From a virus (Duplodnaviria; Heunggongvirae; Uroviricota; Caudoviricetes): a DNA stretch of 28,276 nucleotides. Below the pieces are notes generated by a model that had not been told where the DNA came from, did not search any database, and worked only from the letters and a program-made list of their open reading frames with translations. A program made the position numbers and the translations under genes. Location: IMG/VR virus record IMGVR_UViG_2671180294_000004. One strand, written 5' to 3'. The stretch's first letter is position 1. The number at the start of each line of letters is the position of its first letter. Shown here piece after piece: positions 5,474 to 28,276 of the stretch.

Positions 5474-6773
5474 TCTCCCGCATATTGCCAGCATGGCTTT
5501 TAATGAGCCGCTGATGCTTGAACCCGCCTATGCGCGGGTTTTCTTTTGTGCGCTTGCAGGCCAGCTTGGGATCAGCTGCCTGACGGATGCAGTATCCGGC
5601 GACAGCCTGACTGCCGGAGAGGCACCCGCGGCGCTGGCGTTATCCGGTGATGATGACGGACCACGACAGGCCCGCAGTTATCAGGTAATGAACGGCATCG
5701 CCGTGCTGCCGGTGTCCGGCACGCTGGTCAGCCGGACGCGGGCGCTGCAGCCGTACTCGGGGATGACCGGTTACAACGGCATTATCGCCTGTCTGCAACA
5801 GGCTGCCAGCGACCCGATGGTGGACGGCATTCTGCTCGATATGGACACACCGGGCGGAATGGTGGCGGGAGCATTTGACTGCGCTGACATCATCGCCCGT
5901 GTGCGTGACATAAAGCCGGTATGGGCGCTGGCCAATGACATGAACTGCAGCGCAGGTCAGCTGCTTGCCAGTGCCGCCTCCCGGCGTCTGGTCACGCAGA
6001 CCGCCCGGACAGGCTCCATCGGCGTCATGATGGCTCACAGTAATTACGGCGCTGCACTGGAGAAACAGGGCGTGGAAATCACGCTGATTTACAGCGGCAG
6101 CCATAAGGTGGATGGCAACCCCTACAGCCATCTACCGGATGATGTCCGGGAAACATTGCAGTCCCGGATGGATGCAACCCGCCGGATGTTTGCACAGAAG
6201 GTGTCGGCATATACCGGCCTGTCCGTGCAGGCTGTGCTGGATACCGAGGCTGCAGTGTACAGCGGTCAGGAGGCCATTGATGCCGGACTGGCTGATGAAC
6301 TTGTTAACAGTACCGATGCGATCACCGTCATGCGTGATGCACTGGATGCACGTAAATCCCGTCTCTCAGGAGGGCGAATGACCAAAGAGACTCAATCAAC
6401 AACTGTTTCAGCCACTGCTTCGCAGGCTGACGTTACTGGCGTGGTGCAAGCGACGGAGGGCGAGAACGCCAGCGCGGCGCAGCCGGACGTGAACGCGCAG
6501 ATCACCGCAGCGGTTGCGGCAGAAAACAGTCGCATTATGGGGATCCTCAACTGTGAGGAGGCTCACGGACGCGAAGAACAGGCACGCGTGCTGGCCGAAA
6601 CCCCCGGTATGACCGTGGAAACGGCCCGCCGTATTCTGGCCGCAGCACCACAGAGTGCACAGACGCGCAGTGACACTGCGCTGGATCGTCTGATGCAGGG
6701 GGCACCGGCACCGCTGGCTGCAGGTAACCCGGCATCTGATGCCGTTAACGATTTGCTGAACACACCAGTGTAA
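5454..6773 (+). CDS. C: Prohead protease / scaffold (lambda gpC, S49/ClpP-like)
   Basis: GTG start giving VTAELRNLPHIASMAFNEPLMLEP…, 439 codons as in lambda C. The ORF track extends upstream to 5319 in the same frame, but the lambda-equivalent start is the GTG at 5454, which overlaps the B 3' end. Confidence 0.9.
6378..6773 (+). CDS. nu3: Scaffolding protein (lambda gpNu3), nested in-frame in the 3' part of C
   Basis: Internal ATG at 6378 in the C reading frame giving MTKETQSTTVSATASQADVT… (131 aa), the lambda arrangement of Nu3 within C. Confidence 0.7.
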   Translation: MTKETQSTTVSATASQADVTGVVQATEGENASAAQPDVNAQITAAVAAENSRIMGILNCEEAHGREEQARVLAETPGMTVETARRILAAAPQSAQTRSDTALDRLMQGAPAPLAAGNPASDAVNDLLNTPV

Positions 6774-23798: not shown

Positions 23799-23896
23799 CG
23801 GTTTCATCGTGGGTGTCGGTTATAAATTCTGATTAGCCAGGTAACACAGTGTTATGACAGCCCGCCGGTTCAGGCGGGCTTTTTTGTGGGGTGAAT

Positions 23897-26800
23897 ATGG
23901 CAGTAAAGATTTCAGGTGTACTGAAAGACGGCACAGGAAAACCGGTACAGAACTGCACAATCCAGCTGAAAGCAAAACGTAACAGCACCACGGTGGTGGT
24001 GAACACGCTGGCCTCAGAAAATCCGGATGAAGCCGGGCGTTACAGCATGGACGTTGAGTACGGTCAGTACAGCGTTATTCTGTTGGTGGAAGGATTCCCG
24101 CCGTCACATGCCGGGACCATCACCGTGTATGAAGATTCCCGACCCGGTACGCTGAATGATTTTCTCGGTGCCATGACGGAGGATGATGCCCGTCCGGAGG
24201 CACTGCGCCGTTTTGAGCTGATGGTGGAAGAGGTGGCGCGTAACGCGTCCGCGGTGGCACAGAACACGGCAGCCGCGAAGAAATCAGCCAGCGATGCCAG
24301 CACATCAGCCCGTGAGGCGGCAACCCATGCGACTGATGCTGCAGATTCAGCACGTGCAGCCAGCACGTCAGCCGGACAGGCCGCTTCGTCGGCTCAGTCA
24401 GCGTCTTCCAGCGCAGGAACGGCATCAACAAAGGCCACTGAAGCCTCAAAAAGTGCTGCCGCTGCAGAGTCCTCAAAAAGCGCGGCGGCTACCAGTGCCG
24501 GTGCGGCGAAAACGTTAGAAACGAATGCGGCAGCGTCACAACAATCAGCAGCCACTTCTGCATCCACCGCGACCACGAAAGCGTCAGAAGCTGCCACCTC
24601 AGCCCGGGATGCGTCGGCTTCAAAAGAGGCGGCAAAATCATCAGAAACGAACGCATCATCAAGCGCCAGTAGCGCAGCTTCCTCGGCGACGGCGGCTGCA
24701 AATTCTGCGAAGGCGGCCAAAACGTCCGAGACGAACGCCAGGTCTTCTGAAACGGCAGCGGGACAGAGTGCCTCAGCTGCGGCAGGCTCAAAAACAGCGG
24801 CTGCGTCGTCTGCCAGCGCCGCGTCAACAAGTGCCGGGCAGGCCTCAGCCAGTGCCACCGCCGCCGGAAAATCGGCAGAAAGCGCCGCATCATCCGCTTC
24901 AACAGCCACAACGAAGGCTGGCGAAGCCACTGAGCAGGCCACGGCAGCAGCGAGGTCAGCTTCCGCAGCGAAGACATCCGAAACGAACGCGAAAGCGTCG
25001 GAAACCCGTGCAGAATCCTCAAAAACGGCTGCCGCATCGTCCGCCAGTTCGGCGGCGTCATCGGCATCATCGGCGTCTGCTTCAAAAGATGAGGCGACCA
25101 GACAGGCGTCAGCAGCGAAGGGCAGCGCCACGACGGCATCCACGAAGGCGACAGAGGCTGCTGGTAGTGCGACGGCAGCAGCTCAGAGCAAAAGTACGGC
25201 GGAATCTGCAGCAACGCGCGCTGAGACAGCGGCAAAACGGGCAGAGGATATTGCATCCGCCGTGGCGCTTGAGGATGCGAGCACGACGAAAAAGGGGATA
25301 GTACAGCTCAGTAGTGCGACTAACAGCACTTCCGAGTCACTGGCGGCAACACCAAAAGCCGTTAAGGCCGCGTATGACCTGGCTAACGGGAAATACACCG
25401 CACAGGATGCAACGACAGCACAGAAAGGGATAATCCAGCTAAGCAGCGCGACCAACAGCACGTCTGAAACGCTGGCGGCAACGCCAAAGGCAGTAAAAGC
25501 AGCCAATGACAATGCTGAGAAACGTCTGCAGAAAGATCAGAACGGTGCGGATATCCCTGGCAAAGACACCTTTACGAAAAATATTGGTGCCTGCCGTGCC
25601 TTCGGTGGGTCAGTAAGCACAACAACAGGAAACTGGACGACTGCACAGTTTATCGAGTGGCTGGATTCTCAGGGAGCATTTAACCATCCATACTGGATGT
25701 GCAAGGGTTCCTGGTCTTATGGCAATAATAAAATCATTACTGATACTGGCTGCGGTAATATTCATCTCGCCGGAGCTGTCATTGAAGTAATGGGGATAAA
25801 GTCAGCGATGACGATCCGCATTACCACTCCGACCACATCCAGCGGTGGCGGAACAACCAACGCCCAGTTTACCTATATTAATCACGGAACAGATTATTCA
25901 CCTGGCTGGCGAAGGGACTATAACTCCAGAAATAAGCCAACGGCATCAGAGATCGGGGCGCTACCGTCAGGTGGAACAGCAGTATCATCAGTTAATCTGG
26001 CTTCAAAAGGTCGGGTAGCCGCGCTGACAGACAATACGCAGGGGGCAGCAGGTCTTGAGTTATACGAGGTGTATAACAACGGATATCCAACAGCGTATGG
26101 AAATATCATTCACCTGAAAGGGATGACAGCCGTTGGCGAAGGTGAGTTACTCATCGGCTGGAGTGGTACAAGCGGTGCTCATGCTCCGGCATTTATTCGT
26201 TCACGACGGGATACGACCGACGCAAACTGGTCGCCGTGGGCGCAGCTTTACACCTCGGCTCATCCTCCTGCAGAGTTTTATCCAGTCGGTGCACCAATCC
26301 CGTGGCCATCAGATACCGTTCCGTCTGGTTATGCCCTGATGCAGGGGCAGACTTTTGACAAATCTGCTTACCCGAAACTTGCAGCCGCTTATCCGTCAGG
26401 CGTGATCCCTGATATGCGTGGCTGGACGATTAAGGGCAAGCCCGCCAGTGGTCGTGCCGTATTGTCTCAGGAACAGGATGGCATTAAATCGCACACCCAC
26501 AGCGCCAGCGCATCCAGTACGGATTTGGGGACGAAAACCACATCGTCGTTTGATTACGGCACTAAATCCACGAATAACACCGGGGCGCATACGCACAGTC
26601 TGAGCGGCTCTACAAGTTCAGCTGGGGCCCACCAACATAGTCAGACTGGGCCCAGAACGAATAGCGGGAGTCAACCTACTGGAATGTTTCCGGCAGGGAG
26701 TACTCAAGTTAGCGGGACTAATCAGGTTGGTATCAGTGGCTCATTAACCAGTGGCACCTCCCAATGGGTAGGTAAATCATCTTCAGAAGGAAACCATACA

Positions 26801-26980
26801 CACTCACTGTCCGGCACAGCAGCATCTGCGGGTGCACACGCGCATACTGTCGGTATTGGTGCTCATACGCACTCTGTTGCGATTGGTTCACATGGACACA
26901 CCATCACCGTTAACGCTGCTGGTAACGCGGAAAACACCGTCAAAAACATCGCATTTAACTATATTGTGAGGCTCGCATAA
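23897..26980 (+). CDS. stf: Side tail fibre protein Stf (complete), about 1027 aa
   Basis: Lambda Stf-like N-terminus [26 protein letters not shown]…; long Ala/Ser/Thr-rich shaft; tandem GI(V/I)[11 protein letters not shown](S/T)[10 protein letters not shown] motifs; His-rich GAHxHS repeats; C-terminus …[25 protein letters not shown] as in lambda Stf. The track ORF starts 2 codons upstream (23891). Confidence 0.9.
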
Positions 26981-27496
26981 TGGCATTCAGAATGAGTGAA
27001 CAAGCACGGACCATAAAAATTTATAACCTGCTGGCCGGAACTAATGAATTTATTGGTGAAGGTGACGCATATATTCCGCCTCATACAGGTCTGCCTGCAA
27101 ACATCGTGGCATCTCGTTGAAGATCATCGGGGTAAAACGGTTTATGACGTGGCTTCCGGCGACGCGTTATTTATTTCTGAACTCGGCTCATTACCGGAAA
27201 ATGTCACCTGGTTATCCCCGGAAGGGGAGTTTCAGAAGTGGAACGGCACAGCCTGGGTGAAGGATACGGAAGCAGAAAAACTGTTCCGGATCCGGGAGGC
27301 GGAAGAAACAAAAAACAGCCTGATGCAGGTAGCCAGTGAGCATATAGCGCCGCTTCAGGATGCTGTGGATCTGGAGATCGCAACGGAGAAAGAAACCTTG
27401 TTGCTGGAAGCCTGGAAAAAGTATCGGGTGTTGCTGAACCGTGTTGATACATCAACTGCACCGGATATTGAATGGCCAGTAGCACCTATAGGGTAA
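26980..27496 (+). pseudogene. tfa: Tail fibre assembly protein tfa, frame-disrupted (internal deletion of about 65 nt relative to lambda Tfa)
   Basis: N-terminal 46 codons ([41 protein letters not shown]…) end at a TGA at 27118..27120. The Tfa C-terminal sequence ([28 protein letters not shown]…[10 protein letters not shown]) continues in the +1 frame from 27104. Confidence 0.75.
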
Positions 27497-27582
27497 ATTC
27501 GTAATGATTACCTAAATACGTTATTCTTTTGTTAAAAAAGTGATTTTGCTATAGGTAGGGAGTATGTTCTTGGATTAAGAAT

Positions 27583-27613
27583 AAAAAATCGCCATGAAAG
27601 AGCTTCATGGCGA
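27583..27613 (-). terminator. Rho-independent terminator oriented for minus-strand transcription
   Basis: Perfect 10-bp inverted repeat TCGCCATGAA/TTCATGGCGA (27589..27613) with a 5-nt loop, followed on the minus strand by TTTTTTAT (27581..27588). Confidence 0.5.
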
Positions 27614-27761
27614 GTACATAAACGTACAAAATGTGATGAAAGTAGAGTGGCGTAAGCCACTATATTAAGATATGACAATAGCGAAGAAAAGTAAATAACA
27701 TTTTATGGACGTTTAATTGTTAATTATAAAAACTAGAGTGCCCGATATTGTTTATCTTGCT

Positions 27762-27863
27762 TTAAAATAATGTACTCAAACCAAATTTTTGAGCTAAAAG
27801 CTCAAATAATATAAATGCAATAATAATGTTTAATAAGACAATTAGCTTGCTTTGTATTTTCAT
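27762..27863 (-). CDS. Possible small hydrophobic peptide, 33 aa (speculative)
   Basis: Minus-strand ORF MKIQSKLIVLLNIIIAFILFELLAQKFGLSTLF in AT-rich DNA; no clear Shine-Dalgarno. Could be a chance ORF. Confidence 0.15.
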   Translation of the reverse strand: MKIQSKLIVLLNIIIAFILFELLAQKFGLSTLF

Positions 27864-28245
27864 TTCGGAATACTGTTAAGTAACTTTGATGACCCTAACA
27901 ATAGATCGGAATTTTCTTAGAGTCAATGGTCACTGTTTTTGCTTGCAAAGCAAATGTTTTGGTGGTTATAAGTTGTCTTAATATAGTCACGCATGCAACT
28001 TGTTCCATGCGGAGATTAAAGATTGGAATATAACGCGAAGATGGAATTAAATTACATTTGCAATAATCAATTTATTATTACTCAATAATTACCGATATTA
28101 TTATTGTAAATTAATCATTAGAGTGCAAAAAGAAATGTAACGGCAAAATAAGAGGACGATAGCTGAGAAAAAAGCGTGCTTTCCCAATCTGGGGCAAATC
28201 ACGTCTGAATGACACCTGAAAACAGGTGGTAGCCTCAAGAAGGCT

Positions 28246-28276
28246 GGTGATGCTGCCAACTTACTGATTTAGTGTA
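28246..28276 (+). mobile_element. IS1 terminal inverted repeat (left end, insA side); the element continues beyond the window
   Basis: GGTGATGCTGCCAACTTACTGATTTAGTGTA matches the start of IS1 as I recall it, and the base composition changes abruptly from the AT-rich region before it. Confidence 0.7.

Follow-up and report, generated by a model that had tools for sequence, protein, structure and literature searches.

What does a prophage carry in DNA that seems to hold no genes? The stretch analyzed here, referred to as the window, is 28,276 nucleotides of a virus of the Caudoviricetes (IMG/VR record IMGVR_UViG_2671180294_000004). Near its right end, between tfa and an IS1 insertion sequence, lie 749 bp (27497-28245) that are rich in A and T and poor in open reading frames (ORFs). 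This region was found to be a mosaic of several elements rather than one. The AT-rich, "empty" DNA 3' of the tail fibre genes holds a small, conserved, unannotated gene together with an old integration site truncated by IS1. Sequence comparisons point to a probable mosaic at the variable end of a lambda-type prophage, in which a leftward moron encoding a peptide like YncL of E. coli K-12 is joined to an IS1-truncated fossil right attachment site (attR) of the serU type. Morons, as defined for HK97 and HK022, are additional genes that sit between conserved phage genes and bring a promoter and a terminator of their own, and lom and bor are examples in lambda.

The prophage is of the lambda type, its tfa being 93% identical to lambda orf-194, and in relatives it occupies the lambda att site adjoining ybhB-bioA. 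The region is 100% identical to other E. coli chromosomes and 98.9-99.6% identical to phages mEp332, PhiR70_1, and ev099. As described in the original prediction, no ORF of at least 60 aa is present (the longest are 52 aa, running into IS1, and 48 aa), and the region is AT-rich. Its G+C content is 27-31% over 27500-28124 compared to approximately 50% in stf/tfa. The structured elements described there were also recovered. These are a minus-strand terminator with its stem at 27613..27589 (of 11 pairs, or of 10 if the loop is taken as 5 nt) and TTTTTT after it, a palindrome at 27788-27806 that lies within a 33-aa ORF, a hairpin at 27937-27953 (TTTGCTT-GCA-AAGCAAA), and two short hairpins at 28213-28228 and 28231-28245, beside the IS1 inverted repeat that begins at 28246. 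The 33-aa ORF (27762..27863) translates exactly as reported, and the minus-strand frame is indeed open from the IS1 junction (28111..28215, 34 aa from GTG). Comparison of diverged copies separates these elements. Among the hairpins and ORFs, only the terminator, a hairpin at 27646-27661, and the 33-aa ORF are kept, and the palindromes at 27788-27806 and 27937-27953 are kept neither in the 80%-identical copy nor in the L007 or L008 lineages.

The 33-codon gene and its likeness to YncL

Among the 18,950 models of NCBIfam, the 33-aa peptide matched only YncL (NF000537; E 1.3e-5, 25 bits), with a match spanning residues 1-28 of the 30-position profile. Three natural alleles (25.0, 23.5, and 22.5 bits; E 1.3e-5 to 7.5e-5) matched this model and no other, and neither 6 composition-matched shuffles nor the reversed peptide gave any match. 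The BLOSUM62 local score against K-12 YncL (MNVSSRTVVLINFFAAVGLFTLISMRFGWFI) is 60, compared to a mean of 20 and a maximum of 45 in 20,000 shuffles. YncL of K-12 (b4598; STnc1110/STM14_1932 in Salmonella) has 31 aa, and 11 of 28 aligned positions are identical (M1, S5, V9, L10, N12, A16, L19, F20, L22, F27, and G28), including N12 within the helix and the C-terminal [KR]-F-G. Both peptides have a single hydrophobic segment at residues 7-23 with basic residues on both sides, and their best 17-residue hydropathy windows are 2.94 for the prophage peptide and 2.34 for YncL. Additionally, each would be encoded by a short monocistronic mRNA with its own promoter (predicted here) and its own terminator. 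The differences lie in location, as K-12 yncL is situated between patD and ortT and the prophage gene 3' of tfa, in a much longer conserved 3' untranslated region (UTR), and in the C-terminal tail, which is LSTLF in the prophage peptide and WFI in YncL. Judged by its sequence, the ORF is a prophage-borne YncL-like paralogue.

The pattern of substitution bears on whether this ORF is translated into a selected product. All 54 copies that were recovered, from E. coli genomes, phages, and 48 IMG/VR contigs, have an intact ORF. Conservation was counted by columns over 36 distinct module sequences, among which the ORF contains no indel column, whereas its flanks have indels. Its variable sites fall mostly at the third codon position (13), followed by the first (8) and the second (2). 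Compared to two diverged lineages, the ratio of non-synonymous to synonymous rates (dN/dS) is 0.09 (11 synonymous and 7 non-synonymous changes) and 0.04 (5 and 1). In total, 16 of 24 changes are synonymous, an excess with a binomial p of 8e-7. Going by these changes, the ORF is selected as a protein. The earlier proposal that the hydrophobic ORF is a gene for a small membrane peptide is supported by purifying selection and by the YncL-like sequence.

The same comparison weighs on the view that all of this DNA is without function and decaying at a recombination junction, with the ORF and hairpins still present only owing to the young age of the copies. Most copies are indeed at least 95% identical, and the right third is truly a truncated att fossil. 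The prophage itself is decaying, with tfa broken by a 65-bp deletion and DNA removed by IS1, and a frameshifted allele of the peptide exists in public data. However, in the 76-80%-identical lineage the flanks have acquired indels and about 40% variable columns, yet the frame of the ORF is kept through its 18 substitutions. When neutral copies with 18 substitutions were simulated, the frame survived in only 11%. Moreover, the module is retained in at least 3 distinct prophage contexts. General decay is regarded as very improbable.

The ORF is the centre of a compact minus-strand unit consisting of a promoter-like site, the 33 codons, a structured 3' UTR, and an intrinsic terminator. The features of this part of the region are as follows.

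27898..27926, minus strand: predicted sigma-70-like promoter, TTGACT, 17 nt, TATTGT, with a C just 5' of the -10 (CTATTGT)
27864..27891, minus strand: putative 5' UTR of about 27 nt, placed from the -10 position; sequence UAUUCCGAAAUG
27762..27863, minus strand: putative gene of 33 codons for a YncL-like single-pass membrane peptide, MKIQSKLIVLLNIIIAFILFELLAQKFGLSTLF (including the stop codon)
27614..27761, minus strand: 3' UTR, about 150 nt long, in which a hairpin (AGTGGC-TTAC-GCCACT, 27661..27646) and a U-rich single strand are conserved
27583..27613, minus strand: intrinsic terminator that ends the leftward unit, a perfect 10-nt inverted repeat, with its stem at 27613..27589 and its U-run at 27588..27583
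27497..27582, no strand: spacer from the tfa stop to the terminator, with 41% variable columns (36 copies) and 55-70% identity to the divergent L007
27927..28045, no strand: DNA upstream of the unit, which contains the non-conserved palindrome 27937-27953, travels with the gene, and has no conserved ORF

The predicted promoter matches the consensus at 9 of 12 positions. Its -35 is kept in 34 of the 36 distinct sequences, its spacing is constant, and its -10 is TATTGT, or TATCGT in the 76-80%-identical lineage. A C also precedes the -10 upstream of K-12 yncL (CTATACA), and by analogy with Salmonella yncL this base fits use of sigma-S. At the other end of the unit, terminator-like sites are slightly enriched in the region (2 found compared to 0.6 expected). 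The terminator stem is invariant in the 36 distinct copies apart from one change of G.U to A-U at the stem top. Both the promoter-like site and the terminator are kept in the 76-80%-identical lineage. In the 3' UTR, changes in the hairpin 27661..27646 are either pairing-neutral (C-G to U.G) or in the loop, and the distal part at 27666-27761 is poorly conserved. The 3' end of the unit folds better than expected (z = -4.9; 0 of 200 shuffles as good). The block 27583-27665 is the most conserved of the region, with 10.8% variable columns compared to 22.5% in the ORF and 28-41% elsewhere. The hairpin and T-run that had been proposed as a leftward terminator fall within this block and belong to the 33-codon unit.

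Two other candidates in this part of the region were rejected. An 11-bp inverted repeat around the gene (27660-27670 / 27976-27986) is not kept in the L007 or L008 lineages. A minus-strand ORF of 37 aa at 27895-28008, recorded as hypothetical in the annotation of PhiR70_1, has ACG in place of its ATG in L004, L007, and L008.

Several observations weigh against a YncL-like moron. Promoter matches such as the one proposed occur at chance frequency in the region, where 4 promoter-like sites were found and 3.8 expected. No Shine-Dalgarno sequence precedes the ATG in any allele, compared to AAAGGUGG in K-12 yncL, and this counts against efficient translation. The allele scores of 22.5-25 bits lie below the curated YncL cutoff of 35 (K-12 YncL scores 68.6), so the gene is taken as a diverged paralogue and not as YncL itself. 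No nucleotide homology to the K-12 yncL locus was detected, and a phmmer search of 1.84 billion representatives returned only the peptide itself and one frameshifted variant. The selection estimate draws on three diverged lineages, and the suggested physiological role, whether depolarization or exclusion, is drawn wholly from YncL. Finally, the 3' UTR is better conserved than the ORF, and selection may therefore act mainly on the RNA itself.

The last point leads to an explanation in which the leftward transcript acts chiefly as RNA, either as a small RNA (sRNA) or as an Hfq-binding sRNA derived from the 3' UTR, with the ORF being secondary (dual-function) or incidental. A 3'-UTR-derived sRNA is possible given how well this part of the sequence is conserved. 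The high conservation of the noncoding 3' end and its architecture (hairpin, U-rich single strand, terminator with U-run, and the favourable fold) agree with such a role. Moreover, the sub-threshold Rfam matches on this strand, VrrA, MicC, Hrs12, rseX, and Esr41, are all Hfq-type sRNAs, and Salmonella yncL was itself first described as an sRNA (PMC5437024). On the other side, the coding signature of the ORF is clear, which is unexpected for an incidental ORF. The Rfam search of the region gave no family at threshold, and all matches were far under the gathering scores (E 0.04-6). The idea of a MicC-like, porin-targeting sRNA failed as well. The match to RF00121 reached 22.8 bits compared to a gathering score of 90 (E 0.16-0.7; VrrA E 0.04), the duplex with the ompC leader was matched by 49% of shuffles where real MicC beats 500 of 500, and the alignment to micC was not significant. 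As background to that candidate, OmpC is a receptor for lambda-type side tail fibres. A transcript acting mainly as RNA is considered unlikely.

The peptide is small and hydrophobic, its ribosome-binding site is weak, and its mRNA would be long and structured, features that could also suggest a type I toxin restrained by an antisense RNA and serving in addiction or abortive infection. Such an antisense RNA could start from a promoter-like site on the plus strand (27672-27701); however, sites of this kind are expected by chance, and L007 does not keep its -35. The scan of the region gave no terminator on the plus strand, and no toxin family of NCBIfam, Pfam, PHROGs, or PADLOC was matched. No antitoxin of YncL itself is known. 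The peptide resembles YohP, TisB, HokB, and DinQ in being a single hydrophobic helix of about 30 aa, but it has no sequence relationship to them and no antisense antitoxin is evident. Overproduction of YncL does cause depolarization and lower viability (PMC12542507). Even so, a restrained toxin appears highly improbable here.

Further searches with the peptide returned little. The exact peptide occurs twice, unnamed, among 15 billion predicted proteins. No family match was obtained in Pfam, PHROGs, or PADLOC, and neither tblastn against phages nor the scan of GTDB genomes gave a match. A degenerate motif scan of IMG/VR recovered merely further copies of the same 33-codon gene, and a full-text literature search with the peptide sequence found no paper. 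A 43-aa variant from public metagenome/genome data (P0018) is identical to the peptide at residues 1-26 and different thereafter. It fits a 1-nt change in the A-run CAAAAATTT, as a rare frameshift allele or a homopolymer sequencing error.

Carriers of the unit and its place beside tfa

The carriers were surveyed in 5,426 complete E. coli genomes, where matches to the region can be divided into 3 classes. The first covers the whole 749 bp and was found in 280 genomes. The second covers only positions 1-578 of the region and lies 3' of tfa in other prophages. Its carriers are a Qin-like remnant at ydfJ (L004, 96% identity) and prophages beside sitABCD (L008, 94%; L007, 76-80%). The third covers only positions 665-749 and lies at the right ends of many other lambdoid prophages. 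According to these classes, the region is divided into module 1 (27497 to about 28045-28074) and module 2 (28161 onward), with an AT-rich linker between them. Similarity to L008 is lost from about 28040 and to L004 and L007 from about 28050-28074, and module 2 similarity begins at about 28161.

Several lambdoid prophages that are unrelated to one another thus have module 1 on the 3' side of tfa, and its locations include ydfJ, sitABCD, and the lambda att site. The unit at 27583-27930 is present in 828 of the 5,426 genomes as 942 copies, all of which are chromosomal and none of which is annotated. Among phages, tfa is common to 55 records, lambda included (80-97% identity), and the module accompanies it only in mEp332, PhiR70_1, and ev099. 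In addition, L004 (about 5600-5700) and L007 (4546-4645) contain a second, diverged tfa 3' remnant in the same orientation after module 1, so that the moron is bracketed by direct repeats of the tfa end. Such bracketing is as expected of a cassette moved by recombination within tfa ends.

Low G+C compared to the neighbouring genes, promoter-like and terminator elements of its own, patchy presence among phages with the same tfa, and the bracketing by tfa ends are together marks of a moron. The position at the end of the late operon, beside the tail fibre genes, agrees with other morons as well. The unit differs from them in that its 33 codons are far fewer than usual and in that it is transcribed against the late operon.

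Some features of the neighbouring genes were also seen. The tfa of the window (26980-27496) is a pseudogene, in which 65 bp are missing near 27103 compared to the intact 582-bp tfa of L001, an IS-free relative; the deletion splits it into ORFs of 46 aa and 150 aa. The Rfam family IS009 (RF02111) matches at full length (228 bits) within the tfa coding sequence, at L001 5762-5960 (about 27258-27456 in the window), and this family may simply be a tfa fragment. Upstream, at 23891-26980, lies a side tail fibre ORF of 1,029 aa whose N-terminal half is long, Ala/Ser/Thr-rich, and of low complexity. This half yields several long spurious ORFs on both strands (249-258 aa).

The fossil attachment site and the IS1 junction

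The right part of the region consists of the following features.

28046..28160, no strand: AT-rich linker found only in the lambda-att lineage, at the joint of modules 1 and 2
28161..28245, plus strand: left part of the phage arm of a putative fossil attR from serU-integrating lambdoid prophages, cut by IS1, holding the two short hairpins
28246..28276, plus strand: left end of IS1, inverted repeat GGTGATGCTGCCAACTTACTGATTTAGTGTA

The 85 bp at 28161-28245 match, at 93-100% identity, the right ends of many other prophages. In IS-free relatives this sequence runs 113 bp further, to a 3' fragment of tRNA-Ser(CGA), after which about 290 bp match the downstream flank of K-12 serU, on the yodB side, with an identity of 97% or more. 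The arm, the 3' part of tRNA-Ser(CGA), and the serU flank are contiguous in these relatives (L001 6665-7211), and L001 6861-7211 is at least 97% identical to the 3' part of K-12 serU and its downstream flank. In an ST131 strain, the same arm is found beside zinT, where it marks true ends of prophages. The annotated end of the SerU-LTIIb prophage (KU052038) has the same order of stf, stf2, tRNA-Ser pseudogene, and yodB, and 28161-28245 is the start of the same phage arm as in its attR. Unlike that attR, the sequence here lies within a prophage that occupies the lambda att site, on the ybhB-bioA side, and does not form a prophage end, and it is not a functional recombination site. The combination of arm, tRNA fragment, and serU flank implies that a serU-type attR was carried, along with transduced chromosomal DNA, into a lineage that now integrates at the lambda site. 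The window retains only the first 85 bp of the arm, as IS1 has cut it 113 bp before the core. The earlier idea that the region holds the remains of a variable-region gene does not apply to its right end, where the remains are those of an integration site.

The hairpins beside IS1 fold no better than shuffled sequences (z = -1.1). A retroregulator like lambda sib/tI, considered for the minus-strand hairpins and U-run at 28160-28245, was rejected as speculation on account of this fold. In an O26 prophage with module 2 (L005 1803-3803), three genes for DUF1076 (NleG-type effector) proteins lie between the tail fibre genes and the att arm, indicating that this slot collects cargo genes in other lineages.

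The exact IS1 junction is common to 79 genomes. In one of these (L059), the annotation shows a complete IS1A of 768 bp at this very junction, after which the sequence picks up again at position 7300 of L001. A total of 550 bp, including the tRNA fragment, have been deleted, and no target duplication is present. The open minus-strand frame at the junction had been proposed as the remnant of a gene split by IS1, but in IS-free relatives it extends to only 55 aa. In genomes that share this junction, the 550-bp deletion keeps the frame from continuing past IS1. The 55-aa ORF across the IS1 site, which is annotated in ev099, is not considered a gene, since a frameshift interrupts it in L005 and its C-terminus differs in L006. 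No family match was found for it.

Beyond the fossil site, IS-free relatives carry a plus-strand gene of the AraC family (YdeO/GadX-like, below both family cutoffs) that begins 1,505 bp after the tfa stop. The interval from tfa to this gene has no annotated feature in RefSeq genomes. The gene (L001 7506-8249; also in mEp332, PhiR70_1, and ev099) encodes a regulator of 247-250 aa at the right end of the prophage, with YdeO as its best NCBIfam match (149 bits compared to a cutoff of 348) and GadX as the next best. Transposase fragments of IS2/IS3 come after the gene, and the regulator resembles prophage-borne AraC-like regulators such as AppY. In L059 (5097-6071), the deletion flanking IS1A ends 206 bp upstream of this gene, and IS1 may consequently alter its expression.

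The presence of this regulator downstream, combined with a G+C content of just 27-31%, raises the question of whether the AT-rich DNA is a long, H-NS-silenced control region of the AraC-family gene. However, module 1 exists without an AraC-family gene at ydfJ and sitABCD, and in the present lineage a fossil att site and chromosomal DNA separate it from the regulator. Additionally, IS1-bearing genomes retain merely those 206 bp upstream of the gene. There is little reason to favour this explanation.

Proposed role of the moron and significance

In the proposed mechanism, the 750 bp would be a mosaic that recombination left behind where a lambda-type prophage is variable, at its b-region end. 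The moron would make up the left two thirds, as a self-contained unit read leftward against the late operon and composed of a promoter of the sigma-70/sigma-S style, a leader of about 27 nt, the 33-codon gene, a structured 3' UTR of about 150 nt, and a terminator. The strong intrinsic terminator would halt transcription before it enters tfa as antisense. The right third would be functionless, consisting of the AT-rich joint and the phage arm of the fossil serU-type attR, which would have entered the phage lineage with about 290 bp of chromosomal DNA and later have been truncated by an IS1-associated deletion.

The prophage would presumably express the peptide, which, if it behaves like YncL, would become inserted in the inner membrane and cause a partial loss of membrane potential. 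The lysogen might then be shifted to a stress-tolerant, low-metabolism state, or a superinfecting phage might be hindered. Such an effect on the potential would be expected from what YncL and YohP do (PMC12542507). Production of YncL leads to sublethal depolarization, a phage-shock response, less protein synthesis, and nucleoid condensation (PMC12542507), and YncL is a substrate cleaved by RseP (PMC10470546). Salmonella yncL, initially catalogued as sRNA STnc1110, is sigma-S dependent (PMC5437024). A further suggestion, which is doubtful, is a dual-function prophage RNA that would encode a YncL-like depolarizing peptide, by which the lysogen would tolerate stress or exclude superinfecting phage, and whose unusually conserved 3' end (27583-27665) would be freed as an Hfq-binding sRNA acting on host genes. 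If this were true, about 15% of E. coli strains would carry an unannotated prophage regulator beside the tail fibre genes.

YncL is among the few small membrane proteins of E. coli with a measured effect. A putative diverged paralogue of YncL is present in lambdoid prophages of about one seventh of complete E. coli genomes and was missed by all annotations examined. The evidence that this prophage paralogue is under selection suggests that phages have recruited the YncL type of peptide. From a broader view, phage DNA that looks free of ORFs can resolve into a hidden small gene and datable scars of recombination.

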